Shown piece after piece: positions 785 through 64,000 of a DNA stretch of 64,000 bases. Position 1 is the stretch's first letter. The number at the start of each line of letters is the position of its first letter. Position numbers and translations under genes: made by a program. The stretch comes from a virus, in the IMG/VR virus record IMGVR_UViG_3300020045_007300, positions 30,893 through 94,892 of that record. One strand, written 5' to 3'. The notes beneath the pieces are model-generated. The model was not told the DNA's origin, did no database searches, and saw only the letters and a list, made by a program, of their open reading frames with translations.

Positions 785-1009
785 ATGAATTTAAGCAATA
801 CAGTTTTAACTTTAGCTACACCGAAAGAACTGCAAGACCTTATGATATTGTCTGTAGTCGGCAGAGTGACGGATGATATTTTATCGACAGTGCAAAGTAA
901 CGTAATTTATCGCGTCGTGATAACAATAGAATCAGAAATTAACATGATTGAGTGTAGATGCGATCAACGTGCCAACAGGATTGTTGAATTATGCTTGACT
1001 GGAAAATAG
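785..1009 (+). CDS. Hypothetical protein
   Basis: 74-aa ORF with GAGAG SD-like sequence, in an operon with downstream genes. Confidence 0.5.
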   Translation: MNLSNTVLTLATPKELQDLMILSVVGRVTDDILSTVQSNVIYRVVITIESEINMIECRCDQRANRIVELCLTGK

Positions 1010-1176
1010 CTCTTATTGTCATAGCTATCATTGTAATAGCATTCAGCTTATGGGTTGATTCAGAGATGTGTGCGTATCGGTTTAGTGATAACGGGATTGA
1101 GTCTAAGTATACGATCACTGATGGCTGTATGGTTTATGACGGTAAAGACTGGGTAACTGAAAGGGAGTTTTTGTAA
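991..1176 (+). CDS. Small membrane protein
   Basis: N-terminal hydrophobic helix; stop overlaps the next ATG (TAATG). Confidence 0.55.
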   Translation: MLDWKIALIVIAIIVIAFSLWVDSEMCAYRFSDNGIESKYTITDGCMVYDGKDWVTEREFL

Positions 1177-3871: not shown

Positions 3872-4095
3872 AAATTTAAATTAAAATGCCTAATAAAGAA
3901 ATTGATAATTCTTGCAGTAAAAATGCCAAGGAATCCAGTGACTTAATTGATAGATGGTTTTTAGAAGATATTACTAAGTATGCAGAAAGAATAGCTGGTA
4001 AAATTCTTTTGATAAAAACCAAAAGAAAGCGAATTTATCGCTAAACAACACATAAATTGTCGCGACGACAATCAATCCCAAAGCTGGAATAGAAG

Positions 4096-28383: not shown

Positions 28384-30135
28384 ATGGCTACTATCGCCCC
28401 AAAACCAAATAAACCAACTATCGGCATGGTGCGCGGAGCTGGTACGCAAACTTCCGATAGCATTGACGCTAAATTATCAACTGGTGAATCCGTGCTTAAC
28501 GCAGGAGCTACCAAAGCACTCAAGGCGTTGCTTAAGAAAACAGGTGGCATGACCATTGATGAATTTAACGAACTTCACGCACCGAAAGACGCAGAAACTA
28601 AGGTAGTTGATGGTGTTCTTCATGCGGCACTTGGGGTAGACTTGGGCGCACAATCGAGGATAGATGAATTAACAGGGGTTGCAAAAAAGACAATGCCAAG
28701 TGCGATGCAATCCGCAAAAGCATTTGAACAAATGCCGCCAACTAGAGCCGCTACCGCCGCCGATGTTAATTTTGGTAATGGAATTAAACCAACTACCGCG
28801 CCAACAATCGGAACTCCATCGGCAACACTGGTAAACGACACTACTATTCCCGTTCCGAAAACTGGGTTTTTAAAAGGTGTTGCAAATAACCTAGGTGGCT
28901 CTATGTCGCTTGGAACTGGACTGGCTAGTGAGTACGCACCTAAAGTTTTTGATGCTGGAGTTCAGCAAGCAATGCAGTCTGGTGGATTATCAAAAGATGC
29001 TCCAAGTAGATTATTTGGAGGGAATCAGGTTAGCGACAATGGAGTTACAAATACCGTTGATATTGCAAGTTTAAGAACCCCAGAAACACAAGCTAAGATT
29101 GATGCCATGCCTAAAGCTCCAATAGCATCAATTGCCCCACCAACAGCCGTAACCGCACCAGATGCAACGGCGAAAGTAGCTCCTCAAGTTGGAGCGAATG
29201 ATGGAATTGTAGCTAATTCGTTTAACACTGCAAAGGCTACTAGGGATGTAATTACCCCTGATAGATTAGCTCCTGTAGCAACTATGGCAAGTAACACACA
29301 AGCCCCTTCTCAAGAAGAAGTTAAGCCTGTTATGGTCGGTCAAGACCTTACTGGCAGAGGGATTACTAAAAGTGAAGGTGTTGGCAAGAATGGCTCTACA
29401 TTGTACTCAGATGGTGGGATGGCTAATTTAGCCACCGCTCCGCAAGTTGGAGCGCAACCACAAAAAAGATTATCAGAGGAGCAAGTTAGACAACTATACC
29501 GTGAATTACCCGCAGATTCATTTAGTGCGGCTGGTATGGGTGGAACAACAACACAGCAGCGTTATGACAAACAACAATTACCTGAAAATAGATTAAATCT
29601 TGCGCCACAAGTTGACCCGAACGCACAACGTAACGCACTAATCGCGCAAACCAAGCAATCTGGAAACATTGGCGATAAGGCTATTCGTGATTCAGCAAAC
29701 GCGCAATTAGCCGCACTGGATGCTAACGCCAGAAGCGACCAAGATAATAAATATAAAATGGCTTCATTAGGTCAAAACGCCAGCCAGTTTGAACAGCAAC
29801 AACAAGTGGCTATGGCTACGGCTAAGAATGAAGCCAATAAGTACGCCAACGAACAAGCATTAAAAGAAAAAGAGTTTTCCCTAAAAAGCGAGGGTGGAAC
29901 TACTGCTATTGAAAAAGAAGACGGAACAACGGAATATCGGACAACAGGACGTGCTGGAGAAAGAAAAGCGTATGTCAATGAAGCAATGACGGGGTTAGAA
30001 ACCAACCCTGAATATCTTGGTGGTGTTAATAAATTAATGAAAGAACGTGGCATGAGTCAGGTAGAAGCCGAGGCAGCAGCTAAAGACGCTTATAGACGAC
30101 ACCACTTAGAGATATTTAATAAAGGTGGTAAGTAA
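28384..30135 (+). CDS. Internal virion / DNA-ejection protein (probable start 28384)
   Basis: GG-like VRGAGTQTSDSIDAKLSTGESVL motif; A/P/Q-rich; Cys-free; coupled to giant A. Confidence 0.8.
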   Translation: MATIAPKPNKPTIGMVRGAGTQTSDSIDAKLSTGESVLNAGATKALKALLKKTGGMTIDEFNELHAPKDAETKVVDGVLHAALGVDLGAQSRIDELTGVAKKTMPSAMQSAKAFEQMPPTRAATAADVNFGNGIKPTTAPTIGTPSATLVNDTTIPVPKTGFLKGVANNLGGSMSLGTGLASEYAPKVFDAGVQQAMQSGGLSKDAPSRLFGGNQVSDNGVTNTVDIASLRTPETQAKIDAMPKAPIASIAPPTAVTAPDATAKVAPQVGANDGIVANSFNTAKATRDVITPDRLAPVATMASNTQAPSQEEVKPVMVGQDLTGRGITKSEGVGKNGSTLYSDGGMANLATAPQVGAQPQKRLSEEQVRQLYRELPADSFSAAGMGGTTTQQRYDKQQLPENRLNLAPQVDPNAQRNALIAQTKQSGNIGDKAIRDSANAQLAALDANARSDQDNKYKMASLGQNASQFEQQQQVAMATAKNEANKYANEQALKEKEFSLKSEGGTTAIEKEDGTTEYRTTGRAGERKAYVNEAMTGLETNPEYLGGVNKLMKERGMSQVEAEAAAKDAYRRHHLEIFNKGGK

Positions 30136-33100
30136 TGAGTTCTTTTAATGATTTTCTCGACAAACAATATGCGGAAAAACCAGAGGCGGCAAGCACCACT
30201 AAGGTAAAGTCATTTAATGATTTCCTAGATGAGCAGTACAAGGGAGTAGAGCCAGAAAAACCAAAAGCCAGCGGTGGCGTAGTAGCCGATATAGGGAAAG
30301 CCATAGTTCGCGGCGTGGCGAAAGCCCCCGATGCAATAGCAGGGTTAGCGCATACTGCTTTATCAGATAGTGCCATAGTAGGTGATGCAGCACTGGGCAA
30401 CATGGATTCTTCCAGAATATCACCAGCACAAGCAGCTATTGATTATGGCTTAGGAACGGCAAGGGATAATACCACCCGTGCGTTTGCCGATAAAGTAGCA
30501 AAGGAGTTGCCGTATTCACAAGAAACACTGGATGCTTCTGACAGGCAGCAATCCGATAAAGCCGAGCGACTAAAGCAGATTGACATTGATACGCCTAAAA
30601 TTAAGTCTGATGGCTTAATTCAAGATTTAAACGCTAACAATGCGTGGCGTACTGCCAAGCAAATAGGCGCGGGGGCAATTGCTGGATTAAGCGAACCACG
30701 CAGCTTAATCCCCAGTGTTATTGAATCAATTCCTGAATTTGTCGCATTAGCGGCAGGTTCAAAAGGTGCGGGCATTGCTAAGGGCGCAGGTGGATTGGGC
30801 GATGCTTCTGTATTGGCAGAAAAGGCTAGGTTGGCGGGGGCTGGTGAATCGGTATCTGCTAAAGAAATGGCTAAACACACTGCGAAAGTAGATGGTTTGG
30901 CTACAAAATTAGATAATGCAAAATTAGCAGGTGATACCGCGCTTGAAGCGGATATTAGCGCAAGAATAAGGAAAGCTAACGAATGGACAGCTAAAAAAGA
31001 ACTAGCTAATAATGCAGAAAAAGCAGCTACCAGACAAGATTTAGCGATTGCTGGGTTAGGTAACTTTACCCTTGAGGGGCAAGGTGCGTCCGATAGCGCA
31101 AGACAACAGTTTAATAACTTACCCGATGATGAATTAAGAAAAAATCCTGAGTTCGTTAATTTAGAAAATCAATACGGTTTTGAGCAAGCCAAAAAGATTG
31201 CCAGTGAAGCAACGGGTAATAAAGCCTATGCACCAGCGGCGGCACTTGGTTCTGTAGCATCACTTGGAACAGGTGGCGGCTTAGAAGGTGCGTTAATGCG
31301 TGGTTTCAAAGACACTGCCAAAGACGGAATTGTTAAAGCAGGTCTAAAAGGCGGATTTAAAGAGGGTTCAGAGGAATTTATTCAAGGCGGATCAGGTCAA
31401 TTTGCAGAGAACACAGCATTAAACCCTTACACTGGCGTTGACTCAATGGAAGGCGTAGCGGCTGCCGCAGGTGAAGGCGCAGCTATGGGATTCTTGACAG
31501 GCGGCGGCGGAAGTGTCGTGGGTGCAGCTTATGATAAATATGCTCAGTCTAAAGCGCAGGCTGATATTTTAAAAAAACAGGCATTATCTCAAACTGGATT
31601 ATCAGCAGCAGCTACGCAAGGACAAGCAGCATCAGCTCAAGCTGATGCTGATACACACCTAGCTAATGCACAAGGCTTGCAAGACGGCACAATAGCACCT
31701 GTTCAACCTGAACCAGTAGCCGAAGCTCCAAGTGCATTACCAAAAATAACACCTGACGTACACACGCATATTAGTAATGTACTGGATAGTTCATATCAAG
31801 ATTATGTGAAAAAAGGCGACAAGGCGGCACTTAATAAAGGAGCAATTCAATCGGCAGCAAATGATTTGGGTGTTAGTTACGATCCATCAAAGGAATCAAC
31901 AGCCGATATTTTAGTAAAATCCAGAAAAGCACTGCAAAACTACAATATTGCCAATATCGACCCTGTAGCAATTGAACACGCACAAGATACAATTTCCAAG
32001 ATTAACGAAAAATCAGCGCAAGGATTGCCACCGACTAATGTAGATAACTACAATCTATCCATTGCCGCTGAGAAATTAGGTACAAAACCAGATTTAAACG
32101 CACTCCAATCAACCATTGATAAGCACCTTGAACTAAATGCAAAACCAGCACCAGAAAACCCTGTTAGCCCTACAGCAACAAATCCACTCGCAGACGGAAG
32201 CACTGAGTCGAGCTTACAGCCAGATTCAAATGCTGGAGTTACAAGTGAAGCAAAGCCAGCACCAGTTGGAAAAGCTGATACTGCAAAGCCAATCACGCCA
32301 AAATGGATAGAAAGGCAAGCGGATTCTGATGTTATTAAAAATCCAAATAATTTTGGAAACTTGTCGTTTAAAACCACGAAAGAAGCAAATGATTTTATTG
32401 CTACACACGGATTAAAAAATCATTCACCAGCTAAAGATGGTTATGGCGGTTATGAAATTCACAGTAAAAAGTTTGCCGAAGCCAATAAGCAAAAGCAAGA
32501 CGCTGATATTCCAGACGCATTGAAGCCAAGCGGTGAATATCACTCAGCGATACCTTCATTGCTTAATGATTTGGAAAAAGGTGGCGGAATTGTTGTTGAT
32601 AGTAATAATCGCCGCAGTCAATCTGTTAATCCAACTTGGTTTAAAGATGGATTTATTCTTGATGGGAACACAACGCCTGAAAAAGTTACAACCATTACGG
32701 ACGCTATCCAAAAGTACGCCGACATTAAGGATGGAAAAAGAAAGGATGATTTAACAGGAAAAGACCATCGTATCCTGCAAAAACTTACCGATATTCTTAC
32801 AGAAGATGAACGCGCAAACAGTGTTGAATCCGAAGACATCCGCAGCGATGAAGTTAAATCAGCTCATAAATTTATTGATGAATATGAAAATGGCGATTAC
32901 GATCAAGAGCAATCAATAGGTCAAGACCTGTTGCATGCAAGAGCGACAGATAATAAAATCAATCCAGAAGATTATCGTAATTCTACTGGAATTTATGATA
33001 ACTCAGAGATTTACAAAGAACTTAAACGTAAAACAGGCTACAACACAAACAATGCAACAGATACACAACCTAATACAGCACAACCTGAATCACCGCGAAC

Positions 33101-36100
33101 AAGTGAGAATACCGCCGATTCTGGTAACGTTGGCACACAAGAAAAACAAACCGTCAGTGATGACACGATTAATCAACCAACTAACAAGGCACAAAATGGC
33201 GAAGGCACGGACACAACCACGCAAACCACCAAGAAGAAAGTAGATGAAGCCACTGCACAATATTCAAAACCCGATGAAGAAACGACTGCGGCACAGGACG
33301 GCGTGGTACAAACTGCCGAAAGTGGTAGTGATGCTAGTACGCAATCGAGCAAGACAACGGCTGAAATCAAACAGAACGCCGTATCACCTGACAATGTAGA
33401 ACAGCCAGAAGGTATTGATACATTAACCGATGAGCTAAAACAGTATCTTGTTGATAAAGGTATTTTTACCGCTCAAAAGCGTAACGGGAAATGGACTGCT
33501 TTAATTGCCAGCCCAGACTTGCCTAAATTCTTAACCGACCATCAAATAAACTCGCTTATTCAGCAGGTAAAACAGGATGTGTCGCCAGATAAAACGGCAA
33601 ACAAAGTATTCAATGAGCTTGGCTTTGATAGCAATAAAATCAAAGCCATTAATACGCTATCGAATGCGTTAGCTGTTACCTCAGAAGACCGCATTAGAAA
33701 CGAACATCTAATTAAGCAATCTATCATTGAATTACAGGCAATGCGTGACAATGGCGATATTAGCGAAGACGAATTTAACACGCTAACCTCCGATGCTTTT
33801 GAAAGTAACCAAGTAATTACTAAAGAATTGCAGGCGGCAATTAGTGCAATCAATAATGACGCTAAGAATGCTGGACTGGGCGATTGGGTTAAAAAAGGCA
33901 AGTCTGATTACATTGTCCACGTTCAACCATTAGATTCAACTAGAAAGCGTCTTAAATCGGAAGCATCTAGTGAAATTAAAGGGCTATCGGCTAAAGAGCT
34001 GTCCGATAAGATTAAAAGCTCAAGCCAGAACATAGGCTTAATCGAAAGAACTATGGAACAATTGAAAAAACTGTTTCATAAACTCTTTTCATTAAGTAAA
34101 AACATATCCAATGAAAATACATTCGAGCCTATTAAATGGCTTTCTGATGATGGTAAAACTATGTTTACCGTGCAGAAAGCACCAAAGACATTTTTATTTT
34201 TCAGTGATGAGCAACTGGCATCACCCGACAAAATAGCACAAGCAAATGAGTTAAAAGCTAACATTAAAGCGTTAAAAAGTGATGATTTAAAAGTCAGTAA
34301 AACATCGGCGAATGTATCTGGAAAACTTGACGGAGCAACATTTGATTTTGATGATAGTTTATTGGGAAACAACCCCTATTTAAAAACTATTAATCGTGTC
34401 GTTAATCACGAAGACAAACGAGTGCCGTTAAAGGGATTTAATGACGTTAGTCCAGATAACATCCCTGACTTCATTAGCGCAAACGATACTGAGATAAGAT
34501 TGCTTGAATCAGCGTTATCAAATGCAAAAAAAGGGATTTCAGACCAAAAAAACATTACTCCTAAAATCGCTAGACAAGGAGCTACAGCCACTATAAAGCT
34601 GTTGATGGCTCATAAAAAATCAGGAGAAGGCGAAGCAATAACACATCATTATCGTGGCTTAGAGTTGACGATTTATAGCGACAATGGCGCAGATTATTTA
34701 AAAGTAGGAGAATCGACTGCTTTTGAAATAAACATTAATGAACTGACAAAAGTTAGCGCGTTGACTCCAAAAATTGACGTGCGAATAGACTCATTAGCTA
34801 AAAAAGACTTTGCAGGTGAATTAAACTCTATAAGCCAACAAATAGCAGAAGTTAAGCAAACTAAGCGTGAACTTGCTCAAATTTTAGCGAACTCAGGTTT
34901 TAAGCAATACAAGACTGACCAAGCAAAAAAAGCCCAAGAATCACGATGGATTAGTCAGCAAGCCAAACATGGGAAACCAGAACCAGATGCTGGAGTAACG
35001 CCAGAGGTTAAACCTAAAAAACCTAGTGGTGAATGGTCTTTATTTGAAGATGATTTTAATAAAAAACAAAATGCAATTAATTTAATTCATAGTGAACAGT
35101 GGGCTAATAGACGCAAGAGTCTTGGCTTAGATAAATTAAAATATGGCTACAAAGTTGTTGAGGATGATAACGGGAAATTCTCAATTTTATCAAAGCCAAT
35201 TAATCTTCTTACGGCACAAGATAAATCAGATATTACCAAGGACTTTAATTATGTTAGCGAGGATATTAAGCCTAAAAAACAAGCCCAGCAACCAGATAGA
35301 AACAGTGTAGACCAATTTATTGAGATTAAAAATCTAAATCCAATGAGAAAGGGGTTGCTTACTAAACAGCTAAATAATCCTACTAGCATTAAGGATGATA
35401 TAAAGCCTTTGTATCTTCATATTGAAAACATGATTTTCAATGGTGAAAAGACTCGTACTCGCGAAGAAAATGTAATTAAGGATATGTCTCGTAGGACATA
35501 TAACAATGCAACCCAAGAACAGCAAGACCTTCATGAAAAAAGACAAAAAGAAGCTGGCACAAGAACTGTTTATGTTGTTGGAGGGTATGATTTAGGGAAA
35601 ACCGCCTATGATTATGCCGACTACTTGATAAAGCAGAAAGACCTTGTTCAACAATCCGAAGTGTTCACTAATAATGAGCAGGTCGAAATAGTGAACACAC
35701 CAGCCGACAAACCAGTCAAGCCGACTAATAACGGCACTGACAAAGTCTCTTCCAGTGAAGTAATGAAGCAGATAGACGCTGATATTGATGATATTTTAGG
35801 TGACATTGGTCGTCATCTAATGGGTAAAATGGGTAAAAGCATTGTACCAACTGAGGCTGATACTGAGCTAATGATGCTAGTGGCTAAATTAATGAGGCTG
35901 GTATTTCAGAAAGGATATTTGACATTTAAGGAAGCCGCTGGATTTGTCATGCAAAAAATGAGAGAAAATCTAGGTGACGAATCAGCAAATATGCTTTCTA
36001 TTAAAGATTTGCAAGCAAGTTATATCCAAGCAAATGGTAAAGACTTTGCTGGCATGGCTGAATACACTGATAAGACTGTTTCCGATTTAGAAGCGGATTA

Positions 36101-37283
36101 TGCCAAGTATGTTGATGATTTAATCAATAAAGCCAAGGATGAAATTAAGGCTGAAAAATATAATTACATCGAATTCGATGGAATTAAACCAATCGAAAAA
36201 CCAATATGGGAAATGACAAAAAGCGAGTTCCAAAAAGCTGTTACTTTAAAAGACGAACCAAATCAAAATCTTCCTAACCGCAAAAACGCTTATATTAATG
36301 GTAAATATATTGCCCAAGGGAATTTTACTAAAAACTGGTGGCTAGATGGACATACAGAGGACGATGCAAAAGAAGTTATCCATCGCAACACAATTAATGG
36401 AGTTTTGTCAGATGGAATAAAAATACCAGAAAACGTATTAAATGAATATCCAGAGTTAAAAAGCAAATATTCTTTATACAGCAATAAACCTGCGTCCACC
36501 GAAAGCGAGGTAATTAAAACCAAAGCACCACGCACTAAAAAACAAATCGAACACGCTGAAAACGTATTAGACGAATCAGGAGTAACAGGTGATTTATTCG
36601 CCTTTGCCGAAAGTGTGATAATTCCTGTAACCAATAGCAGCATGGTTTCACCAGAAGCATTACACAAAACACCAGTCGACGAATTAACAGAATCGGAAGC
36701 CGAAACCTATTTTGATAACTTAGCGGCTGATATTATTATCCAAGCCGAAGCAGAAGGAATACCCGATGTTGACACCAAAGAAGAAGCACGAATTATTGAA
36801 ACTCTGGCAGAAAATGTACCCGCTGGAGCGATCGCCAAAGCAAGAAGCCAGAACGCCGCACAGAAGCCAACGCGCACATTAACAACCGTAGACGGCGAAT
36901 CAATACCCGTTTATGAAAATGATGATGGAATGTGGCAATCGGTAGCCAAAAACGAAGACGGTTATTATCAGAAATTTCCAAAGGATGACGACCAAATTGA
37001 CAGCGTTAAGGCGATTAGTGAAGACACCAACACAATCACCATAGACGGAAAAGAAATCGCAGTAGCGGATGTTTTTAAACGGCTAAAGGGTAAGTCGGTT
37101 GAACGTAACCAAATTACCGAGCTACTTAACAATCATCCTGATAAACAGATGGTAGCGCGAATAATGGCAATCAATGAAGGAGTGGGCACAAAGAACCGTA
37201 CAGAACTACCGATACTTGAGGCACTTGTTAAACTTGGACGACATAGCAAAGAAAATACGCGCGGTTTCTCTATGGATTGTTAA
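30135..37283 (+). CDS. Giant internal virion / ejection protein A (2382 aa)
   Basis: Gly/Ala-rich membrane-type N-terminal region with EG.EE..Q motif; single Cys is the last residue. Confidence 0.85.
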   Translation: MSSFNDFLDKQYAEKPEAASTTKVKSFNDFLDEQYKGVEPEKPKASGGVVADIGKAIVRGVAKAPDAIAGLAHTALSDSAIVGDAALGNMDSSRISPAQAAIDYGLGTARDNTTRAFADKVAKELPYSQETLDASDRQQSDKAERLKQIDIDTPKIKSDGLIQDLNANNAWRTAKQIGAGAIAGLSEPRSLIPSVIESIPEFVALAAGSKGAGIAKGAGGLGDASVLAEKARLAGAGESVSAKEMAKHTAKVDGLATKLDNAKLAGDTALEADISARIRKANEWTAKKELANNAEKAATRQDLAIAGLGNFTLEGQGASDSARQQFNNLPDDELRKNPEFVNLENQYGFEQAKKIASEATGNKAYAPAAALGSVASLGTGGGLEGALMRGFKDTAKDGIVKAGLKGGFKEGSEEFIQGGSGQFAENTALNPYTGVDSMEGVAAAAGEGAAMGFLTGGGGSVVGAAYDKYAQSKAQADILKKQALSQTGLSAAATQGQAASAQADADTHLANAQGLQDGTIAPVQPEPVAEAPSALPKITPDVHTHISNVLDSSYQDYVKKGDKAALNKGAIQSAANDLGVSYDPSKESTADILVKSRKALQNYNIANIDPVAIEHAQDTISKINEKSAQGLPPTNVDNYNLSIAAEKLGTKPDLNALQSTIDKHLELNAKPAPENPVSPTATNPLADGSTESSLQPDSNAGVTSEAKPAPVGKADTAKPITPKWIERQADSDVIKNPNNFGNLSFKTTKEANDFIATHGLKNHSPAKDGYGGYEIHSKKFAEANKQKQDADIPDALKPSGEYHSAIPSLLNDLEKGGGIVVDSNNRRSQSVNPTWFKDGFILDGNTTPEKVTTITDAIQKYADIKDGKRKDDLTGKDHRILQKLTDILTEDERANSVESEDIRSDEVKSAHKFIDEYENGDYDQEQSIGQDLLHARATDNKINPEDYRNSTGIYDNSEIYKELKRKTGYNTNNATDTQPNTAQPESPRTSENTADSGNVGTQEKQTVSDDTINQPTNKAQNGEGTDTTTQTTKKKVDEATAQYSKPDEETTAAQDGVVQTAESGSDASTQSSKTTAEIKQNAVSPDNVEQPEGIDTLTDELKQYLVDKGIFTAQKRNGKWTALIASPDLPKFLTDHQINSLIQQVKQDVSPDKTANKVFNELGFDSNKIKAINTLSNALAVTSEDRIRNEHLIKQSIIELQAMRDNGDISEDEFNTLTSDAFESNQVITKELQAAISAINNDAKNAGLGDWVKKGKSDYIVHVQPLDSTRKRLKSEASSEIKGLSAKELSDKIKSSSQNIGLIERTMEQLKKLFHKLFSLSKNISNENTFEPIKWLSDDGKTMFTVQKAPKTFLFFSDEQLASPDKIAQANELKANIKALKSDDLKVSKTSANVSGKLDGATFDFDDSLLGNNPYLKTINRVVNHEDKRVPLKGFNDVSPDNIPDFISANDTEIRLLESALSNAKKGISDQKNITPKIARQGATATIKLLMAHKKSGEGEAITHHYRGLELTIYSDNGADYLKVGESTAFEININELTKVSALTPKIDVRIDSLAKKDFAGELNSISQQIAEVKQTKRELAQILANSGFKQYKTDQAKKAQESRWISQQAKHGKPEPDAGVTPEVKPKKPSGEWSLFEDDFNKKQNAINLIHSEQWANRRKSLGLDKLKYGYKVVEDDNGKFSILSKPINLLTAQDKSDITKDFNYVSEDIKPKKQAQQPDRNSVDQFIEIKNLNPMRKGLLTKQLNNPTSIKDDIKPLYLHIENMIFNGEKTRTREENVIKDMSRRTYNNATQEQQDLHEKRQKEAGTRTVYVVGGYDLGKTAYDYADYLIKQKDLVQQSEVFTNNEQVEIVNTPADKPVKPTNNGTDKVSSSEVMKQIDADIDDILGDIGRHLMGKMGKSIVPTEADTELMMLVAKLMRLVFQKGYLTFKEAAGFVMQKMRENLGDESANMLSIKDLQASYIQANGKDFAGMAEYTDKTVSDLEADYAKYVDDLINKAKDEIKAEKYNYIEFDGIKPIEKPIWEMTKSEFQKAVTLKDEPNQNLPNRKNAYINGKYIAQGNFTKNWWLDGHTEDDAKEVIHRNTINGVLSDGIKIPENVLNEYPELKSKYSLYSNKPASTESEVIKTKAPRTKKQIEHAENVLDESGVTGDLFAFAESVIIPVTNSSMVSPEALHKTPVDELTESEAETYFDNLAADIIIQAEAEGIPDVDTKEEARIIETLAENVPAGAIAKARSQNAAQKPTRTLTTVDGESIPVYENDDGMWQSVAKNEDGYYQKFPKDDDQIDSVKAISEDTNTITIDGKEIAVADVFKRLKGKSVERNQITELLNNHPDKQMVARIMAINEGVGTKNRTELPILEALVKLGRHSKENTRGFSMDC

Positions 37284-43597: not shown

Positions 43598-43674
43598 TGT
43601 TATTGTAACACACAAAACCATGTTACAATAAACCCATAAACCCAAACTATCGCCGCAAGGTGAAAGGAATACTC

Positions 43675-46600
43675 ATGTCTAACTGTATCTACACATTCAA
43701 CGACCCTCTGAACGGCGACAAGCAAATCACTATTGAAGGTTTGCCAGCACTCAAGGCTTATCTGTTTAAGGGTGGGGCAGAGGCTTTGCTTGGTAATGTT
43801 GCTGGTGAACTAGGTATTCCTGTGTTTGGAGTTATTAAGCAAGGCGTAGCTAAAGAAAACAGTAAGTCAGAAATAGGTAAGAAGCCAAAACTCGGAAATA
43901 ATGTTAGCATTGAAATAAGGAGCTTTTCTAGGTTTAATAGTGATGAAGACAAAAATGAATACGTTAAGTCTTTAATTAATAATGGGTTTAATTCTGACAA
44001 GTTACAAAAAGAGGTAGATAATACTGCAAAAGCATCCGAATATTTTTCGAAAGGTGGTGACGCAGGATATGCGGAAGCAACAAATTATGCCGCAACAGTT
44101 GGTAGAGATTTGCTTAATAGACTAATTTTCGCAGAAACACAATCAGCACCAAGCAAATATACACAAGAGCTTAAAAATACACCACAGAAATTGTCACCAC
44201 TACACACCGCAATAAACAACGGCAACACAACCGCCGTCCTAGAGCATATCAAAGCAAATAGTGCAACGCCGCTACACCAAATACTAGCTGATAAGCTCAC
44301 TGGAATACTGCCAGACGGAATAAACATAACCATTTCCGATACGCTGAAAAACAATCGCGGCGAATCTGGCATAATGAATTATGACTACGCATCCAAAACC
44401 GTGTCTGTTAATTTATCTGCAATCGCAAAGCTAAAGGAAAATACCACTGAGAAAGCCTTTATTCACGAGCTGATTCACGCGGTAACGGGCGAAAAGATTA
44501 ACGCCATTATGAGCAAGAATGAATCAACGCTAACCAAAGACGAAAAAATAGCGCGTACTCAACTTAAACTGATTGCTAATCTAATTGCCAAGCACGTTGA
44601 AAAAAATAGCATTACGGGCGATTTAAAGAAAATATCTGCATTAACAAGCGAAAACCTACGCGAACTTATCACCTACGGATTAACCGAACCAGCATTCCAA
44701 AAGATGCTTGCTGATATTAAAATTGGCAAAGATAAAACCGCGTGGACTCAATTTGTTCACGCCGTTGCCAAATTACTTGGCATTGAGCTTAACGAAGAAC
44801 AAGAAACCGCACTATCGGCTTTGTTGATGGTTGGTGATAGTTTGCTGGGTGATGCTCTGGCTAATATGGAAAATAATGACGCTATCGAACCGTCCCGCAC
44901 TGACATCCTTGCCAAAATAAAATTAGCCAACAAAGAAATGTTGTCGTTAGTTAATAGATTGAAAAATGGAGAAAGTGCTAAATCGCTAAATTATAGTGAA
45001 AAACTCAAAGAATTTGAAGCTGAAAAAGACCGTTTAGCAATCCTATATGACAACTCTATTGATAATGAACAAAAAAACTATCCAAACGGAATTACTCAAG
45101 AATTAATTGACGAAGTAAAAACTCATTTATCAGATAAGGTTCATAATGGATGGAATGGAGACTTTTTACCAAAAGTTAGGGTTACAAAAGGTCTCATATA
45201 CTCAATTACACTGGATGAAGAAAAAACAGAGCAAATATACCAAATTCTAAAAAATGAGCAGGATACACTGGAAAGCATTGACCAAGAAAGAAGTATTTTT
45301 AAAAATATCGTACCTAAAAAACGGCAAAATGTATGGGAAGAAGATAAGCCTTATCGTGAGTCTGGAGCAAGTCATTTTGACATCTCAGGAACGCAACGCG
45401 CATTAATGAGTGGCAGAGCTAAAGACAAGTTCGATAAGGAGGTCGCGAAAGGAACGGACAATAAAAGGAGTCTGGCTACTGGGTGGTATGACAAATTAAT
45501 ACGCGCTTATGAGAACGAGGAGTTCAGCCTTGAAACTAAAGGATTAAGTCTTGACGCAAGGAATTATATCGCTAGGCATATTGCTGATTTAAAAGCAGAA
45601 GGGGAAGATAGTGCAACCAATGAATCACAACCCGCCAACACCGAAGAATCGGCACAGCTCGTTGCGCCAAAAAACAAAATATCTAAATCAGCTAGACAAA
45701 ATCTTTATGTAGCATTGCTAAGAGCTGGATTCAAAGAGAGGTACGGTTCAGCGACACCTATTGGTAACTTGTTAATTAACGGCGAATCTTACAGCGATAC
45801 AAACATCTTAAAAAATAGCGACCTTAAGCAAAATTTTACAATTCAAACTATTAAAGACGGTAAAGTTGGAAGAATTGAGTTAACACCGCATCAATTAGTT
45901 AAAGCGGCTAAATCAGCAGGTAATCCTGTTTTTGATAAAGTTGATGGCATTGATAGTATCAAACCATCAAAATCAACCACGCCAACAAACGCCCACACCA
46001 AAACCACACTAACCAGCGCATTACGCACAGTGATGGATCGTGAATATGGCAGTGGATGGACTCAGAGGTTGTTGGCTACTGGGAAGTTCGAGGTAATGAC
46101 TCGCGCCGAAGCGCAAGCACTTGAACCCACAGCCAATCTTGATAACGTACAGGGCTATTATTCTGCTAAGCACGATAAAACCATCCTGATTGCTGAACAG
46201 ATTGCAAAGGGTAAAGATTTAAAGGGTTTAATGTTGCATGAAATCGGTGTTCACGCGCAAAACTTAAATCTTGAGCAAAAAGAATTTAATGAAATTTTAA
46301 ACCAGCTTGAACGAATGAGAAAATTTAGCAAACCCGTCCAAGCGGCATACATTAGAGCGTTAAACTCTTTTAGTCTTAGCTCTATGCCTATCGATAGCGT
46401 TCCACAAACAAGCATAAGAAACGCCTATTCTAGTAGCGACATCTCTAATGCTAAGACCGCTATCAATAAGCTGATAAATAACATTGAAATCATAATTGGT
46501 TCTGGTGTACGCAGGGGTATAAGCACCAATAACGTCAAGAACCCTTCTAACAGAGCTTGGGTGGCAATTAAGAATCTTTCCAATCTCAGTGTACTTGAGA

Positions 46601-48780
46601 CCAGACTCAACAAGAATCTTGGCTTTGTCGGTATCAATAAAGCTAGGATTATGGTGTCTAGCATGAGAGATATTGTCAGTAATGACGAGATTTTCAATTC
46701 TATTATCGAGTTTATTCCCATTGATATGATGAATATGCTCATCAACGGAAAGCTTTCTGCCAATGGACATCTCTACGATATGTCTATGCTCATAGATAGT
46801 CTTCCCGTTAATACTGATAACTCTATATCCTCTTTTTCCGACATACCCATTAGGATTGCTATGAATGTATTTAATTCTGCAATCTCTGGAGCAGCAAACA
46901 ACCCCCTTGAGTTTAGTAAATCTAGCGGGATTGACATGAAAGATATTTCCGCATTGAACGCAAGGCTTGCTGGAGTTAATTCTGTCGTTGGCACGAAGGA
47001 AAGTAGCGGAGCAAGACTGACTGCAAAAAACATCAGTGGATTTTATGCTGCTAGGCTGTCTAATTACATCGACACCGCAATTAGCGCATTGGAAAACAAT
47101 GGATTTATTAGTAAAGATACCTCTGCACGAATTAGAACAAAAGAACAATCCAGATTTACAAACTCTAATCTGGGTGTTGGTTCTAGTGAGAATGGTATTG
47201 CAGGTGGTACAATTGACAATAGGCATGATGTTACTCCGAATAGTAATGTTATGTCAGGTGATAAACCTGTTGAAGCAGACTTATCACCGACTATTATATC
47301 AAAAAAAGATGTTATGCACGAGGTATTAGCTTATTTAGTTGAGTACCATCCTAAATTATCAATCAATCAAAAATTCCTAGCATGGTTTAAATCAAAGTTG
47401 CGCGCATTGGGCAAAGCATTACCTAAGTTGGAACAGTTGAAGTGGGTGCGTTGGGCAAATTCGCTAAATGAGCAAGATTTAGTGTCTGTGGCAAGTAGTG
47501 CATTACGAAACGCACCCAATGATCTGATGTTTGATAATGTGGGGCGTGGTGATGAAGTGGTTAAGTTGTCGGAACAGCAAGCACGGTTTTACTCAGCTCT
47601 ACGAAAAGCGTTTTTATTAGCACCTGAAAAAGTATTTACCAACGGCGCAGCAGTAAAGGCTTGGATTAATGGTAATGCTGGTAAATTTGAGGTCAAGAAA
47701 GATGAAATTTACTGGTCTGGATTAAATGAATTTTTAGATATGCAGGGCAAGGTTAGCCGTGATGATGTGGTTCGGTTCTTGGATACTAATGGCGTGAAAG
47801 TTGATACCATTGAATTAAACGGAATTCCTGTTTATCCAAAAGGTTCATACATGGATGATGACGGCGATGTAAGACAACAGGAAGAATGGAGGGTAACTAA
47901 TGAAGGTGACGAATTATCAGATGATGAACTGGACGATTTATTATCTGAAATGACGGACGTATCTGGCAATTATGTTGAAGGAGAGGGCGGTAATGCTATT
48001 AATTCAGATGATTGGCTAAAGCAGGAAGGTGGAGAAAATTACAGGGAATTAATTGTTACTGCACCTCAAGCTGAATCATATAACGAAAATGATCGTATGC
48101 ACTATGGAGAAATTAGCGATGGTCAAGCTATTGTATGGTCAAGGCTTACTGATAGAGAAACTAATAATGGTGAAAAGATACTGTTTGTTGAAGAAATACA
48201 ATCACAAAGAGCGGATGATTATCGAGCTAAATATAAAGGAAAGCCATTAATAGAGAATAATTATAGGGATGAAAAGTATTTGGATGATAGTGAAAAAATA
48301 CCAGAAGCCCCTTTTATCTCGTCATCAAGTAAAACCCCATCAACAGCTTATATAACACTTATATTAAAAAAGATAGTTTCTAGTGCGATTGATAACAATC
48401 AGTCTATTGTTGCTTGGGCTACTGCTGAACAAATGCCAAGTAGTGAGAATGTGGAGTCATGGGGAAATGCAATGTATGGAAACCAATATGGATTGGATGA
48501 AAAAGAAAATCCAGCATTAATTACCTTGGTGGCACGGGAAATAGCGCGTAAATTTGGTGGTAAAATCGGCACGGTTAATTTGAGTACAGGAACACAACCA
48601 GCATTGATTATCACGCCTGAGATGCGTCAGAAAGTGATTAATGAGGGTATGCCCTTGTTTAGCAAAGCACAGCCAAAAGATAACGACTTGCAATCAAAAA
48701 TCACCGACGCAATTGACGCAGAATGGTTGAATATCGTCAATGAAATGAAGCGTCAGGGAGTGATCAAAATACGGTGTTAG
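43675..48780 (+). CDS. Giant polyvalent virion protein B (probable start 43675, MSNC...): two zincin metallopeptidase-like domains and a C-terminal EEIQS-motif domain
   Basis: HELIH at 44464, HEIGVH at 46237, LFVEEIQS; SD AAGGA plus GNRA hairpin; Cys only at residue 4 and the last residue. Confidence 0.88.
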   Translation: MSNCIYTFNDPLNGDKQITIEGLPALKAYLFKGGAEALLGNVAGELGIPVFGVIKQGVAKENSKSEIGKKPKLGNNVSIEIRSFSRFNSDEDKNEYVKSLINNGFNSDKLQKEVDNTAKASEYFSKGGDAGYAEATNYAATVGRDLLNRLIFAETQSAPSKYTQELKNTPQKLSPLHTAINNGNTTAVLEHIKANSATPLHQILADKLTGILPDGINITISDTLKNNRGESGIMNYDYASKTVSVNLSAIAKLKENTTEKAFIHELIHAVTGEKINAIMSKNESTLTKDEKIARTQLKLIANLIAKHVEKNSITGDLKKISALTSENLRELITYGLTEPAFQKMLADIKIGKDKTAWTQFVHAVAKLLGIELNEEQETALSALLMVGDSLLGDALANMENNDAIEPSRTDILAKIKLANKEMLSLVNRLKNGESAKSLNYSEKLKEFEAEKDRLAILYDNSIDNEQKNYPNGITQELIDEVKTHLSDKVHNGWNGDFLPKVRVTKGLIYSITLDEEKTEQIYQILKNEQDTLESIDQERSIFKNIVPKKRQNVWEEDKPYRESGASHFDISGTQRALMSGRAKDKFDKEVAKGTDNKRSLATGWYDKLIRAYENEEFSLETKGLSLDARNYIARHIADLKAEGEDSATNESQPANTEESAQLVAPKNKISKSARQNLYVALLRAGFKERYGSATPIGNLLINGESYSDTNILKNSDLKQNFTIQTIKDGKVGRIELTPHQLVKAAKSAGNPVFDKVDGIDSIKPSKSTTPTNAHTKTTLTSALRTVMDREYGSGWTQRLLATGKFEVMTRAEAQALEPTANLDNVQGYYSAKHDKTILIAEQIAKGKDLKGLMLHEIGVHAQNLNLEQKEFNEILNQLERMRKFSKPVQAAYIRALNSFSLSSMPIDSVPQTSIRNAYSSSDISNAKTAINKLINNIEIIIGSGVRRGISTNNVKNPSNRAWVAIKNLSNLSVLETRLNKNLGFVGINKARIMVSSMRDIVSNDEIFNSIIEFIPIDMMNMLINGKLSANGHLYDMSMLIDSLPVNTDNSISSFSDIPIRIAMNVFNSAISGAANNPLEFSKSSGIDMKDISALNARLAGVNSVVGTKESSGARLTAKNISGFYAARLSNYIDTAISALENNGFISKDTSARIRTKEQSRFTNSNLGVGSSENGIAGGTIDNRHDVTPNSNVMSGDKPVEADLSPTIISKKDVMHEVLAYLVEYHPKLSINQKFLAWFKSKLRALGKALPKLEQLKWVRWANSLNEQDLVSVASSALRNAPNDLMFDNVGRGDEVVKLSEQQARFYSALRKAFLLAPEKVFTNGAAVKAWINGNAGKFEVKKDEIYWSGLNEFLDMQGKVSRDDVVRFLDTNGVKVDTIELNGIPVYPKGSYMDDDGDVRQQEEWRVTNEGDELSDDELDDLLSEMTDVSGNYVEGEGGNAINSDDWLKQEGGENYRELIVTAPQAESYNENDRMHYGEISDGQAIVWSRLTDRETNNGEKILFVEEIQSQRADDYRAKYKGKPLIENNYRDEKYLDDSEKIPEAPFISSSSKTPSTAYITLILKKIVSSAIDNNQSIVAWATAEQMPSSENVESWGNAMYGNQYGLDEKENPALITLVAREIARKFGGKIGTVNLSTGTQPALIITPEMRQKVINEGMPLFSKAQPKDNDLQSKITDAIDAEWLNIVNEMKRQGVIKIRC
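46360..47226 (-). CDS. Zn-finger-repeat HNH endonuclease with C-terminal HTHs, nested antisense in giant B
   Basis: Repeated CxxC/FCS..C, YEHRHIVE..IGRKL..EHIHHINGNKLDNRIENL; own GGAG SD and TGnTATAAT at about 47293-47301. Confidence 0.9.
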   Translation of the reverse strand: MPIVNCTTCNTILTRTNTQIRVCKSGLFFCSNSCRGIFTNKSIVFQCANCGVDVIRQPSSIKSTDVFCSQSCSATFLRANDRINSSKPCVQCGNIFHVNPARFTKLKGVVCCSRDCRIKYIHSNPNGYVGKRGYRVISINGKTIYEHRHIVEMSIGRKLSVDEHIHHINGNKLDNRIENLVITDNISHARHHNPSFIDTDKAKILVESGLKYTEIGKILNCHPSSVRRVLDVIGAYTPAYTRTNYDFNVIYQLIDSGLSIRDVATRIGVSYACLWNAIDRHRAKTKRV

Positions 48781-59642: not shown

Positions 59643-62600
59643 ATGGCTTGTGTGTATATATTCCCCGATGGCAAAAAACTATCAGTTGCAGACATGGACG
59701 ATTATTTAAAGTCATTGCCGCATGAAACCTTGGCTAAATTTTCGCCAGTTGTGGCGGCTTTGTTGGGTGAAGCTAATAGTGGTGTTAGGTTTAGTAAATC
59801 TCCAGATAATGATGTGGCGTCTCAAGCAAAGTCATACGGAATTAATGTAAAACAGAATTCCGACGGAAGCATAATTCTTTATCATGGGGCTTCCAAGAAA
59901 GCAGCCGAAAGCATAGATAAATCGCAGTCATTCAATGAGCAATCGTATTTTTCACACGCTAAAACAACAACTGGTTTTGGTGACAGTAGTCCATTGTATT
60001 ATGCGACTATTAAGAATAAAGACGGCAAGCTATTTAAAATAAATGTAGACCCAAGCGCAATATCATTTAATGGCGGAACTGGTGAGTTTTACGCAGAAGA
60101 TGGGTTAAGGTTTGATAGCAATTCTGGTATATGGATTGCTGGAACTAATCAAACAGAAAATAAGCCATCAAAACAGCCTGAATTTAAAGTAGACGATGTT
60201 TATGGTGACCAAGTTCAGATAAATGGTAATTGGTATCATGCCGAGCGTGTGCTAGGCAAAAAAGCCAGTGAATTTAAAGTTGGTGATTCAGTCAAATTCA
60301 GCAAATCCCCCCAACAAACCACATCATCAACAGTCGCACAGGTTAAATCTTGGCTACCAAAACTAGTACAAGGTATGCTGGATAATGGAAAATTGCGCGT
60401 GGTTCAGTCGGTTAATGATTTGCCAGCGCATTTGAGAGAAGCAGGTGCGGCTATGCTTCATCAAGTATGGCACGGAAGTCCTCATGACCATAATAAGTTT
60501 GATAGTGCTAAGATTGGTACGGGAGAAGGTAACGCAATGTACGGATACGGACATTATTTTACCGACTTAAAAGATATTGCCGAGTGGTACAGGAATAATT
60601 TAGCAGATTCAAAAAACAACGGAAAGCTGTATGAAGTTGAGCTTTCCCCTACACAAGACCAATACCTAGACTGGGATAAAAAGCCAAAAAAACAACTTAT
60701 TAATAAGATAATAAAATCGCTGAACAATAATGGATATGAAGTTTTTTCTTATGGCAATACAATAAGATATAAAAAAGGAAATGCTGAATATAGCATAGAT
60801 TTGTACAATGGAGGCTCAGTATACAACGGTGTTGCCGAGATATTTAGCTGGGACGAAAAGGCTGCGAGTGAGTTTCTTCACAGCATAGGTGTCAGAGGTA
60901 TACGCTACAAAGCCGACCAAGGTAAAACAGATACTAACAACTACGTCATATTCTCAGACGATGACATCATAATTACCAACAAATACAGCGAGCTAAACGG
61001 TATTCAAGGGTTGTATGATGCCACCAGCGACAAAACCTATTTAGTAGCCGATATGCTCACTAAAGATAATACAAACATCGTATTATCGCATGAGCTATTT
61101 CACCGTTTCTACGCCACCGATCCAAAAGCTAAAGCCGTCATGAGCAAAATGATGTTTAGTGCGCGTGAATCGTTTGACCAAGCATCGCGCGGCAAAGGTA
61201 CTAAAACTGAATTATCGGCTTATCAGCGCGTTATTAATGCCAAGACACCTGAAAAAGACCAGATTGAAGAATATCTGGCTTACCAAATATCGAGCTTTTT
61301 AGAGAATCCAAAAAACGTAACCCCATCACTAGCCAATCTTATCAAAAACTGGATAGCCAGTATCAGAATGGCACTGTTACGCTATGGCATTGATATGGGA
61401 TTTGTGCGTAGCTTAACGCCGCGTGACTTGGTTGCGCTTAGTCAGTATGGGGCTAAGGTTGATGCTATTGCTAATCCAACGGGTAACGCTGTTTTAATGA
61501 AAGCCAGTAAAGCAGGTTACGAAGGCAGTGATACTGGAGAAGCGTTTGAATGGCTTAGAGCTGTTGCTAAAGGATTGGACATGTCACAAGAGGCTAGGAT
61601 GGCTAGAGCTAAGGACATGGGGTTTGATGTTGATAAGATTTGGTTTCATGGCTCAAAGTCGGATTTTAATGAGTTTGATAAAAACAAAATAAATGAAGAT
61701 TTTAATTTATTTGGAAAAGGTTTTTATTTTGCATCCATGTACAGCCACGCTAGTGAGCATGGAAAGGTTAATAATTTCTTATTAAAAGCCAATAACAGTG
61801 CTAAATATACATTAACACTGCAAAAAGAAGCTGATGATATGGGCATTAATGTAAGTGACTATGTAAAACTAAAAGGTTTTGATTCGATAATTCAAGGTGA
61901 TAGATTTAATGCTCAAATTGTTATTTTTGACTCTAATAAAATTAGGAGTGAAGACGCAGCATTCGACCCAGACTTTGCAGATAGCCATAACCTTCTAGCC
62001 AGCACATCAGATAAAGACCTAGAAACCCTGTTATCCACTTACGCCAATGAAAACGGCGCACCATCAAGAGTTGAACTTGCCGAAGCACTAAGACAATACC
62101 GCACAATTGAATCACAGTATTTCAACGCCGATGGTACGCCTAAAGAGGGGGCCATGGTCGCACCTAATGGCAAACCCACCAATCTAAACCGTCAGCAATG
62201 GATTGCTGTTAGGACTGAGAATTTTAAGAATTGGTTTGGGCGGTGGGATAGTGATCCTGAAAACTCGAGTAAAGTTATTGATGATAATGGTGATCCATTA
62301 GTGGTTTATCATGGTACAGATGCTGATTTTTCAGAGTTCAACTTAAATTACTTTGGAAAATCTGATGTAGGATTAATAGGTAAGGCTTTTTATTTTGCAT
62401 CAAAAATGCCAGTTATTAATATGATTTACGCCAACAAGAGTAATGGATTGGCTATGCCAGTATTTTTGAATATATCGTCACCGTACACTTTTTTAAATGG
62501 AAAATCTAGTGATGGGACTGGATTAATGAAAACGTATGGAAGTAAAGTTTTTGCAAAAAAGATGCAATCAAAAGGTTACGACGGAGTGGCGTTTAGCGAC

Positions 62601-64000
62601 CAAGGTGATATAGAGCAGTACGCTGTTTTTAACCAGAACCAAATAAAATCCGCCACAGCAAACACAGGAGTATTCGGAAAATCAAACGACATTCGTTTCT
62701 CATTTGCAGGTGAAAACGCCCAAACAGCCGATAAATATCAACTTGCTACCGCTAAGGAACGCTTAGCCAATGGCGAGGATAAGGAAGTTGTGCGCAGGGA
62801 TACTGGGTGGTTTATGGATGCTAAGGACAAGAAATGGAAGTTTGAGATTGATGATAGTGATGCTTCATTGAAACCATCATTAAAAACACTGTCAAAGGGA
62901 GGTAGCAATAGTGGGTTAATGCAGTCTATTTCATACAAGAAAAATGACGATGGAACTTTTACTATAGATATGACAAAAAAAGACCCAAAAACATCGGGTG
63001 ATTTTATTAGCCTTGTCTCAGTATCAAGAGGGTTTATTAATTCTGTTTTACCAAAAAATATAATTGACCTAATTAATAAAAACCAAGGGGAAGATGATTA
63101 TGTTGGTGACTTTGAAAATGCAAAGGGCATAACTCAGGATTTTACAACGGAAGATTTTAACGCTATTCAGTTGGATGATGTACTAAATCACCCTACTTTA
63201 TTTGCAGCATATCCTAAGTTAAAAAACACAATGGTTACTGTTGATCCAAAAATGCAAGGAGCTAATTTTTATCAAGATGATGATGGGGATAATGTAATTA
63301 CACTTGGTAATGCTAATCAGTTAAGTAGTATTTTACACGAAATTCAACACGCCATACAAACTAAAGAGGGGTTTGCTAGTGGCGGAAGTCCAGGGCAATT
63401 TAATTACACGCAAGCACAAAAAGACGAGTTCACAAGAATAGAAGATGCCTTGGTTGTTAAAAGAATGGGTAGGAGTGATGGCGTATCCGAAGGAATTAAA
63501 AGATTTACTGAAATGGAGGGGCGACCACCTATTATTGGGGCGGCTGGTTTGGCAGATAGGACAGATGTAAAAAAACTATCTGAAATGTATCAGCAAGTAA
63601 AAACAAAATTAGGAAAACCAGAGGATAATAACCACGTTAAATATGAAAAACTAGCAGGTGAAATAGAAGCCCGTAACACCCAAGCCAGACTAGGATTAAC
63701 CGCAGAACAACGCCGTAACACACCCATAGCTGATACACAGGATATTCCAGATTCAGAGGCTATTGTGGTTTGGAATGGTAAAACGATGAATAATTCAATA
63801 CCACCTGCTAACGCATACCCCAGCAACTACTACAGTGTAGCTGAAAGATTCAATATCCCAGTTCAAGCGGTAGCAGAGATAGCGAATACACCAGTTGAGA
63901 TAATGGTCGATAACTGGAAAAATTCAATGTACCCGTCAGACACCGACAAGCCTACGGAATTTAATATAATTCCTATGGGTACTGTTGCATTATCTGGATA
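59643..64000 (+). CDS. Giant polyvalent virion protein C (partial, at least 1452 aa): four ADP-ribosyltransferase-like domains, zincin metallopeptidase, LPD23-like domain
   Basis: Hand-translated open frame from MACVYIF to the window end; YHG/WHG motifs at about 59880, 60468, 61641 and 62307; HELFH 61089; FAGENA..TGWF..WKFEIDD..HEIQH..GEIEAR. Confidence 0.9.
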   Translation, partial: MACVYIFPDGKKLSVADMDDYLKSLPHETLAKFSPVVAALLGEANSGVRFSKSPDNDVASQAKSYGINVKQNSDGSIILYHGASKKAAESIDKSQSFNEQSYFSHAKTTTGFGDSSPLYYATIKNKDGKLFKINVDPSAISFNGGTGEFYAEDGLRFDSNSGIWIAGTNQTENKPSKQPEFKVDDVYGDQVQINGNWYHAERVLGKKASEFKVGDSVKFSKSPQQTTSSTVAQVKSWLPKLVQGMLDNGKLRVVQSVNDLPAHLREAGAAMLHQVWHGSPHDHNKFDSAKIGTGEGNAMYGYGHYFTDLKDIAEWYRNNLADSKNNGKLYEVELSPTQDQYLDWDKKPKKQLINKIIKSLNNNGYEVFSYGNTIRYKKGNAEYSIDLYNGGSVYNGVAEIFSWDEKAASEFLHSIGVRGIRYKADQGKTDTNNYVIFSDDDIIITNKYSELNGIQGLYDATSDKTYLVADMLTKDNTNIVLSHELFHRFYATDPKAKAVMSKMMFSARESFDQASRGKGTKTELSAYQRVINAKTPEKDQIEEYLAYQISSFLENPKNVTPSLANLIKNWIASIRMALLRYGIDMGFVRSLTPRDLVALSQYGAKVDAIANPTGNAVLMKASKAGYEGSDTGEAFEWLRAVAKGLDMSQEARMARAKDMGFDVDKIWFHGSKSDFNEFDKNKINEDFNLFGKGFYFASMYSHASEHGKVNNFLLKANNSAKYTLTLQKEADDMGINVSDYVKLKGFDSIIQGDRFNAQIVIFDSNKIRSEDAAFDPDFADSHNLLASTSDKDLETLLSTYANENGAPSRVELAEALRQYRTIESQYFNADGTPKEGAMVAPNGKPTNLNRQQWIAVRTENFKNWFGRWDSDPENSSKVIDDNGDPLVVYHGTDADFSEFNLNYFGKSDVGLIGKAFYFASKMPVINMIYANKSNGLAMPVFLNISSPYTFLNGKSSDGTGLMKTYGSKVFAKKMQSKGYDGVAFSDQGDIEQYAVFNQNQIKSATANTGVFGKSNDIRFSFAGENAQTADKYQLATAKERLANGEDKEVVRRDTGWFMDAKDKKWKFEIDDSDASLKPSLKTLSKGGSNSGLMQSISYKKNDDGTFTIDMTKKDPKTSGDFISLVSVSRGFINSVLPKNIIDLINKNQGEDDYVGDFENAKGITQDFTTEDFNAIQLDDVLNHPTLFAAYPKLKNTMVTVDPKMQGANFYQDDDGDNVITLGNANQLSSILHEIQHAIQTKEGFASGGSPGQFNYTQAQKDEFTRIEDALVVKRMGRSDGVSEGIKRFTEMEGRPPIIGAAGLADRTDVKKLSEMYQQVKTKLGKPEDNNHVKYEKLAGEIEARNTQARLGLTAEQRRNTPIADTQDIPDSEAIVVWNGKTMNNSIPPANAYPSNYYSVAERFNIPVQAVAEIANTPVEIMVDNWKNSMYPSDTDKPTEFNIIPMGTVALSG

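Follow-up and report, generated by a model that had tools for sequence, protein, structure and literature searches.

Homing endonuclease genes that are borne by introns or inteins encode selfish, site-specific nucleases; they reside at conserved coding sites, leave the host product intact and are patchily distributed among relatives. Free-standing HNH genes of phages, together with the mob and seg genes of the T4 type, possess their own promoter and Shine-Dalgarno (SD) sequence and join an HNH nuclease to a DNA-binding module, and they occupy intergenic positions or interrupt a gene in such a way that two products result. A further arrangement is the ShiLan domain, a 'hidden HNH' insertion element in the mycobacteriophage DNA methylase gp65, in which an HNH_3 gene lies within the insertion, the host frame is stop-free, intron and intein features are lacking and the inserted residues are predicted to project from the host protein as a loop (Arsenault, Gosselin and Gogarten 2025, Genes 16:178, PMC11855218). 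Here, we describe a related but reversed arrangement in a 64,000-nucleotide stretch of DNA (hereafter the window), which corresponds to positions 30893-94892 of the 94.9-kb uncultured virus record IMGVR_UViG_3300020045_007300 of IMG/VR. Analysis of this sequence makes it probable that a mobile cassette, encoding an HNH_3 endonuclease with helix-turn-helix (HTH) domains, lies backwards within a giant host gene, giant B, and that the host gene is read through without splicing.

The nested nuclease is homologous to the HNH of ShiLan, sharing 38% identity over 117 residues (E 8e-18), and the two elements differ in their placement. The ShiLan HNH is encoded on the same strand as its host, out of frame (offset 2, confirmed from the record coordinates) and without a detectable ribosome-binding site, whereas the gene described here is antisense and in register, is furnished with its own promoter-like box and SD sequence, and is housed in a polyvalent-type protein and not in a methylase. 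Antisense cases are not mentioned in PMC11855218, and the literature, when searched for homing endonuclease genes in an antisense, in-frame position, yielded nothing relevant beyond that paper. Compared with intron- and intein-borne genes, the difference is the lack of a splicing element; the nested gene appears to be rendered harmless by recoding, such that its complement is an acceptable stretch of host protein. Unlike the free-standing genes, it leaves the open reading frame (ORF) of its host continuous.

Giant B occupies 43660..48780 on the plus strand, a stop-free ORF of 1706 codons when read from a GTG. Its likely start is the ATG at 43675 (MSNC), which yields a protein of 1701 amino acids and is the start used in the public protein P0003. 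The nested gene lies on the minus strand at 46360..47226 and encodes 288 amino acids, comprising three N-terminal Zn-ribbon-like CxxC...CxxxC repeats and an HNH_3 endonuclease with two HTH domains. Its TAA stop lies opposite the codon for host Leu901 and, as the codons of both ORFs start at positions congruent to 1 modulo 3, the triplets of the two strands coincide one for one. The nested ORF matches Pfam HNH_3 (PF13392) with 38.5 bits against a curated cut-off of 24.8 (E 8.8e-10; 41.5 bits in the genome scan), and also matches HTH_23 (E 5.4e-9) and several PHROG HNH families. Residues E146, H147, R148, H166, H167, N169, D174, N175, E178, N179 and H188, which include the His/Asn/His core of the catalytic motif, are invariant among the aligned nested and related genes.

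The signals expected of an independent gene can be read on the minus strand ahead of its ATG. An SD sequence, GGAG, is positioned seven bases 5' of the ATG (47234..47237) and is kept as AGGAG in the related locus L020; a 13-bp leader hairpin follows at 47257..47288 (dG -17.1, z -3.2), for which L020 has a hairpin of different sequence at the equivalent place; and an extended -10 box, TGATATAAT, read directly as the complement, is found at 47293..47301, with TGATACAAT in L020 and TGATATAAT in L039. A consensus promoter scan did not list the box at 47293-47301, there being no -35 match. ORF coordinates and family matches agree with an earlier note on this DNA, which had described a 288-residue HNH gene on the minus strand, in register within an open giant B, and had credited it with the TGnTATAAT box, leader hairpin and GGAG that we read at these positions.

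The whole inserted cassette extends over 46360..47301, equivalent to host codons 901-1214, and in the host frame it is rich in Ser, Asn and Ile and contains no Cys. Upstream of it on the plus strand stands the HEIGVH (HExxH) motif of a host module (46237..46254; helix 55-69 of the model), and the host sequence that resumes after it, KKDVMHEVLAYLV (47302..47340, plus strand), contains the conserved Glu of ExLAY at 47320-47322. The insert measures 308-314 codons, with 308 extra residues relative to insert-free homologues, and relatives with an empty site have 4-12 residues at this place. The insert-free homologue from locus L012 aligns to B 829-900 and then again from B 1221 onward, with 12 residues between, and giant C of the same window is uninterrupted, its SAYQRVINAKTPEKDQIEEYLAY aligning across the junction. 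The alignment thus bears out the proposal in the earlier note of an insert of about 310 codons between HEIGVH and its downstream Glu. In an AlphaFold model of the insert-free L012 module, the site falls in AGTP, a loop of four residues that connects helix 82-93 to helix 98-112 and is located 40 residues past the HExxH helix.

Searching 1.84 billion representatives with the L012 module returned 1439 relatives, mostly giant proteins. The insert-free alleles of B that had been called for were found in P0178, whose flanks are 67-84% identical to those of B, and in P0186, both close relatives with an empty site. B's site is occupied in the window, L001, L020, P0126 and P0181, and is empty in L012, P0178 and P0186. 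Intermediate alleles are present in P0127 (residues ~1280-1315) and P0180 (~1090-1125), in which a 33-residue stretch has ends resembling the two ends of the insert and no HNH core; judged by their sequences, these would be either deletion scars or long-loop (target) alleles. Furthermore, P0127 is mosaic with respect to B, being 80-87% identical over the N- and C-terminal parts and 41-46% identical in that portion of the HExxH module which lies to the left of the insert, and the HExxH module and insert may have been exchanged by recombination. Related-locus searches produced no relative with P0178 in viral and genome contigs, and only distant, previously found loci with P0127, and the DNA of neither allele was among them.

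The same insert is found at the same site in two other IMG/VR loci, L001 and L020 (the HNH gene of the latter at 1411-2031), with flank identities of 37-49% and HNH identities of 48-52%; in both, an open host frame runs opposite an in-register antisense gene. The length of the insert follows that of the HNH gene, the versions in L001 and L020 having one Zn-ribbon repeat and being ~81 residues shorter. The corresponding part of the nested gene in the window, 46972-47226 on the minus strand, contains three CxxC...CxxxC repeats as opposed to one in L001 and L020. From these sequences, the nuclease gene appears to have grown by ~81 codons through internal duplication, with the host frame still open and Cys-free. 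L020 also possesses a second nested, antisense, in-register HNH_3 gene (493-990, plus strand; 165 amino acids, E 1.4e-11) inside its giant ORF (1-4479, minus strand), ~140 host codons downstream of the first and of a different sub-lineage.

Recurrence was sought more widely by scanning metagenomes with an alignment of the nested proteins and then screening every locus in six frames. This revealed 13 further nested HNH_3 genes among ~95 relatives, lying within antisense, in-register host frames that are open over 694-2799 codons. Additionally, an antisense-HNH-like peptide occurs in ~10 of the best 150 relatives of the module, being located at B's site in P0126 and P0181; a search of this kind for antisense-HNH segments had been suggested by the earlier note. 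No nested case in either of the other two antisense registers emerged from the six-frame screen. In the in-register antisense frame, stops arise solely from the complements of TTA, CTA and TCA, each of which has synonyms, and thus a nuclease gene can keep its own protein sequence while its complement remains stop-free. A stop in either of the remaining antisense registers would straddle two codons and thereby constrain dipeptides, which can account for the in-register form being the only one seen.

The same screen detected three cases in which the HNH gene has the sense orientation but uses a different frame from its host. One of these is a metagenomic case of the ShiLan type, in which an HNH_3 gene (L053:3983-4462, plus strand) lies on the same strand as, and out of frame with, the gene for an N6_N4 DNA methylase (L053:3420-5186, plus strand).

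Codon use in the nested gene is unusual to a degree that chance would not readily produce. Its 14 Leu and 25 Ser codons include no TTA, CTA or TCA, and its 19 Thr and 12 Ala codons include no ACA or GCA, in exact agreement with the counts and the five avoided codons reported previously. In the window's other genes, TTA and CTA constitute about half of the Leu codons, and TCA ~30% of the Ser codons. Under the background codon use of the window, the probability that the host frame is open is 10^-7.9. The record's two other HNH_3 genes carry 9 and 12 TTA/CTA/TCA codons, and their codon use gives a probability of 10^-7.4 for an open frame and of 10^-5.9 for a frame with no Cys. The codon-shuffle check that had been proposed likewise finds the avoidance significant: synonymous resampling gave no stop-free frame in 200,000 attempts and a mean of 14.8 stops. 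The earlier count of three other HNH genes has to be corrected in this respect, two other HNH_3 genes being found in the 94.9-kb record.

A codon-family test, in which 15 nested genes were pooled and set against 52 free-standing relatives, allowed the constraint to be resolved by the residue that each codon generates on the opposite strand. All 52 free-standing relatives have TTA/CTA/TCA codons (1-20 per gene, median 7). In the pooled nested genes, stop-generating codons number 0/334, made up of TCA (0/116, against 32% in free-standing relatives), CTA (0/167, against 20%) and TTA (0/51, against 58%). Cys-generating codons number 0/343, with ACA at 0/172 and GCA at 0/171, against 35% and 26% in the free-standing genes. 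Codons with aromatic complements are depleted: CCA, the complement of a Trp codon, falls from 35% in the free-standing to 8% in the nested genes; GTA and ATA, which generate Tyr, from 27% to 5% and from 41% to 5%; and AAA and GAA, which generate Phe, from 67% to 34% and from 64% to 40%. Conversely, there was no significant difference for A-ending codons that generate Ser (GGA, nested 29% and free-standing 31%; CGA, 19% and 22%; AGA, 73% and 69%) or Leu (CAA, 60% and 69%). Plain compositional bias cannot yield this pattern, given that these four A-ending codons occur at normal rates. Judged by codon use, the test shows that residues of the host frame are also selected, beyond the avoidance of stops, and this argues for read-through translation. 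We regard the agreement between the insert and the Cys-free composition of its host as the strongest indication at hand that the insert is translated within the host protein.

Two other accounts of the codon pattern were considered and rejected. An A3-poor codon bias of foreign origin is at variance with the use of GGA, CGA, AGA and CAA, which is as in free-standing relatives, and the window's other minus-strand genes are normal in this regard. An avoidance of host codons that are one step from a stop is not observed either, host AAG, GAG, AAA, GAA, AGA and GGA being common, as seen from the frequent use that the nested gene makes of their complements CTT, CTC, TTT, TTC, TCT and TCC.

Comparison of the three same-site genes reveals which of the two frames dominates. 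Base identity at the first, second and third HNH codon positions is about 0.6-0.62, 0.7-0.72 and 0.45-0.48, and amino-acid identity is 0.49-0.50 in the HNH frame and 0.32-0.34 in the host frame. The divergence by codon position, together with the higher identity in the HNH frame, shows the nuclease frame to be the primary coding frame.

When 73 HNH_3 proteins were placed on a tree, the 15 nested genes proved to form a single group (one change; Shimodaira-Hasegawa-like approximate likelihood-ratio test (SH-aLRT) support 84), and none of 500 shuffles of the labels gave so few changes. The three same-site genes are joined with support of 99, and the second copy of L020 groups with L034, L035 and L039 at 97, while the ShiLan HNH and L053 group together, apart from the nested genes. 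This topology fits a habit of backward insertion that arose once and then radiated to new sites. On balance we favor, with somewhat more reserve than for the reading of the locus itself, the view that one HNH_3 lineage has specialized to live backwards in giant Cys-free polyvalent genes, in the form of pre-adapted cassettes that obey host composition and invade new loops.

The scarcity of Cys is a property of the host proteins at large. Giant B has two Cys in 1706 residues, at residue 4 (MSNC) and at the final residue. There are none in the 3281 residues of the L001 protein or in the 3721 residues of insert-free L012, and the remaining host frames of nested genes likewise have none, with the exception of a single Cys close to the N-terminus of the L020 frame. 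Among the best 150 family representatives, 85 lack Cys altogether and 137 have two or fewer. The claim that the host is Cys-free, as first made for giant B, therefore holds and can be generalized, ACA and GCA being absent from 15/15 nested genes. The earlier note also took the Cys-free insert as support for a terminal-Cys hypothesis; selection against internal Cys speaks for that part of the argument, and the link to the hypothesis is an indirect one. In several giant proteins (window 30135-37283, 43675-48780 and 59643-63998; P0127, P0178, P0180, P0186 and P0189), Cys occurs only near the N-terminus (residues 3-7, often as M-x-x-C-[TIV]-Y) and sometimes also as the last residue. An N-terminal Cys is present in 24/149 family representatives with two or fewer Cys, and at least five also end in Cys, a recurring pattern that is of relevance to the terminal-Cys hypothesis.

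The domain content of the hosts connects them to the polyvalent proteins, for which zincin-like metallopeptidase modules have been described and processing by those peptidases has been proposed (Iyer et al. 2017, PMC5512222). ART-PolyVal, LPD1, LPD5, LPD38, PBECR5 and RadC domains occur in the hosts of the other nested genes, identifying these as polyvalent proteins, and relatives that carry B's HExxH module have ART-PolyVal or LPD1. B itself, in contrast to these module-sharing relatives and other hosts, has no Pfam polyvalent domain above threshold, and has a sub-threshold SprT-like match. Its HEIGVH motif is placed in a predicted helix after three predicted strands, and the Glu is conserved in ExLAY. 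We infer a zincin character for the HExxH module from this motif and from the published description of metallopeptidases in polyvalent proteins. Foldseek (pdb) and VIA wide searches with the B module including its insert, and searches of both libraries with the insert-free L012 module, gave generic helical matches with Z <7 and no peptidase; a PDB profile search of the module gave 0 matches, and Pfam assigned it to no peptidase family.

Taken together, these findings lead us to propose that a cassette consisting of an extended -10 box, leader hairpin, SD sequence and endonuclease gene has become inserted, in reverse, in a surface loop of the HExxH module of a giant Cys-free, polyvalent-type protein. 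The cassette is a multiple of three in length, with its codons in register with those of the host. Host messenger RNA would be translated straight through, with neither RNA nor protein splicing, adding to the loop ~310 residues that are rich in Ser, Asn and Ile, lack Cys and contain few aromatics, and the loop insert would leave the host protein functional. The nuclease would be expressed from a promoter of its own, in the same direction as the neighboring minus-strand gene blocks, and the two strands would probably be expressed at different times. It would cut empty sites, allowing the cassette to spread by repair, or homing, and the HNH gene is probably selfish. The core of this proposal, namely a homing-type HNH gene lying antisense in a coding gene such that its complement is a tolerated, Cys-free host stretch, was already contained in the earlier note, and it is supported by same-site recurrence, 13 more nested cases and the codon-family contrasts.

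Homing endonuclease genes are usually encountered in introns, inteins or split genes, as in phages of the T4 type, and it might accordingly be supposed that the insert is an unrecognized intron removed at the RNA level, or that giant B represents a pair of genes separated by a free-standing endonuclease gene, the open frame being incidental. A search of Rfam, which covers described ribozymes only, gave no intron match at E<=1 across 45800-47900 on both strands, and Pfam detected no Hint or intein family on giant B; moreover, the insert is devoid of Cys and terminates in ...TIIS before KK, with no His-Asn at that junction, all of which sustains the earlier statement that neither intron nor intein is involved. 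Against a division into two genes, no stop brings the upstream half to an end, and an alignment of the three insert-bearing genes shows no conserved Met that could serve as a start at the downstream junction. Both versions would also leave unexplained why codon absences and aromatic depletion should be found in 15 genes in which Ser- and Leu-generating codons are normal, and we regard them as exceedingly improbable. Less remote is the idea that the insert is translated with the host and is subsequently excised or clipped by the protein's own HExxH peptidase or by another protease, giving two associated pieces or a trimmed protein. The codon-family signals demand translation and not retention, and the insert sits within a module of the very kind by which polyvalent proteins are proposed to be processed (PMC5512222). 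However, the junctions of the three same-site inserts share no conserved cleavage motif, and an avoidance of Cys and aromatics is most sensible if the peptide persists in the protein or travels with it, which renders clipping unlikely.

It could also be argued that the nested gene is no longer selfish, either having been domesticated as a nuclease or DNA-binding protein, or being retained for a function gained by the host-frame peptide, and that it is inherited vertically. Purifying selection on the HNH frame at ~50% divergence, matching the divergence of the flanks, and the membership of the nested genes in one old lineage are both consistent with this account. Its difficulty is the patchy presence of the gene, which is missing from the close relatives P0178, P0186 and P0127, yet present in the distant L001 and L020; sub-lineages are, furthermore, found at different sites, and L020 has two copies in one gene. 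We therefore consider domestication very unlikely. The proposal of a mobile cassette read through by its host has weaknesses of its own that have to be set against it. The HNH sequences (~50% identity) are about as diverged as their flanks (37-49%), so that long vertical co-descent with losses fits as well as recent homing. No SD can be clearly recognized ahead of the ATG of the nested gene in L001. AlphaFold assigns fairly confident helices to parts of the host-frame insert, which on this modeling may not be a plain disordered loop. Finally, the support for a single origin in the tree is moderate, and shared recoding may bias a tree built from amino acids.

If the mobile-cassette reading is correct, its consequences reach beyond this one virus. 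It would constitute a third route, beside introns and inteins, by which a selfish nuclease gene can inhabit coding DNA, and one that would exploit the genetic code itself, in which each of the three stops has as its complement a Leu or Ser codon with synonyms. It would equally provide a natural case of a single DNA stretch selected for protein on both strands. The codon-family contrast offers a sequence-only sign of antisense-frame translation and could be used as a general dual-coding detector. The near-absence of Cys in polyvalent-type giants also bears on their packaging or delivery; PMC5512222 makes no mention of cysteine, nor of homing, antisense or inteins.

There are implications for annotation as well. 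A collection of 5.8 billion proteins includes the giant ORF, as one protein of 1701 amino acids, but not the nested nuclease; gene callers evidently drop such nested genes, and phage annotation would consequently undercount them in a systematic manner. Megablast of 45800-47900 against phage records gave no match, and a protein search with the host-frame insert peptide, limited to proteins of 551-2000 amino acids, matched only the window's own protein.

Two minor observations may be added. A longer nested HNH ORF, of 339 amino acids under the first-start rule, is present in L077 (914-1930, plus strand; host 2-4168, minus strand), where the host frame is Cys-free and carries a GGDEF domain. The large terminase of the window has its nearest relative, among the matches listed, in the terminase of Roseobacter phage CRP-7 (37% identity), the others being mostly from Vibrio phages.

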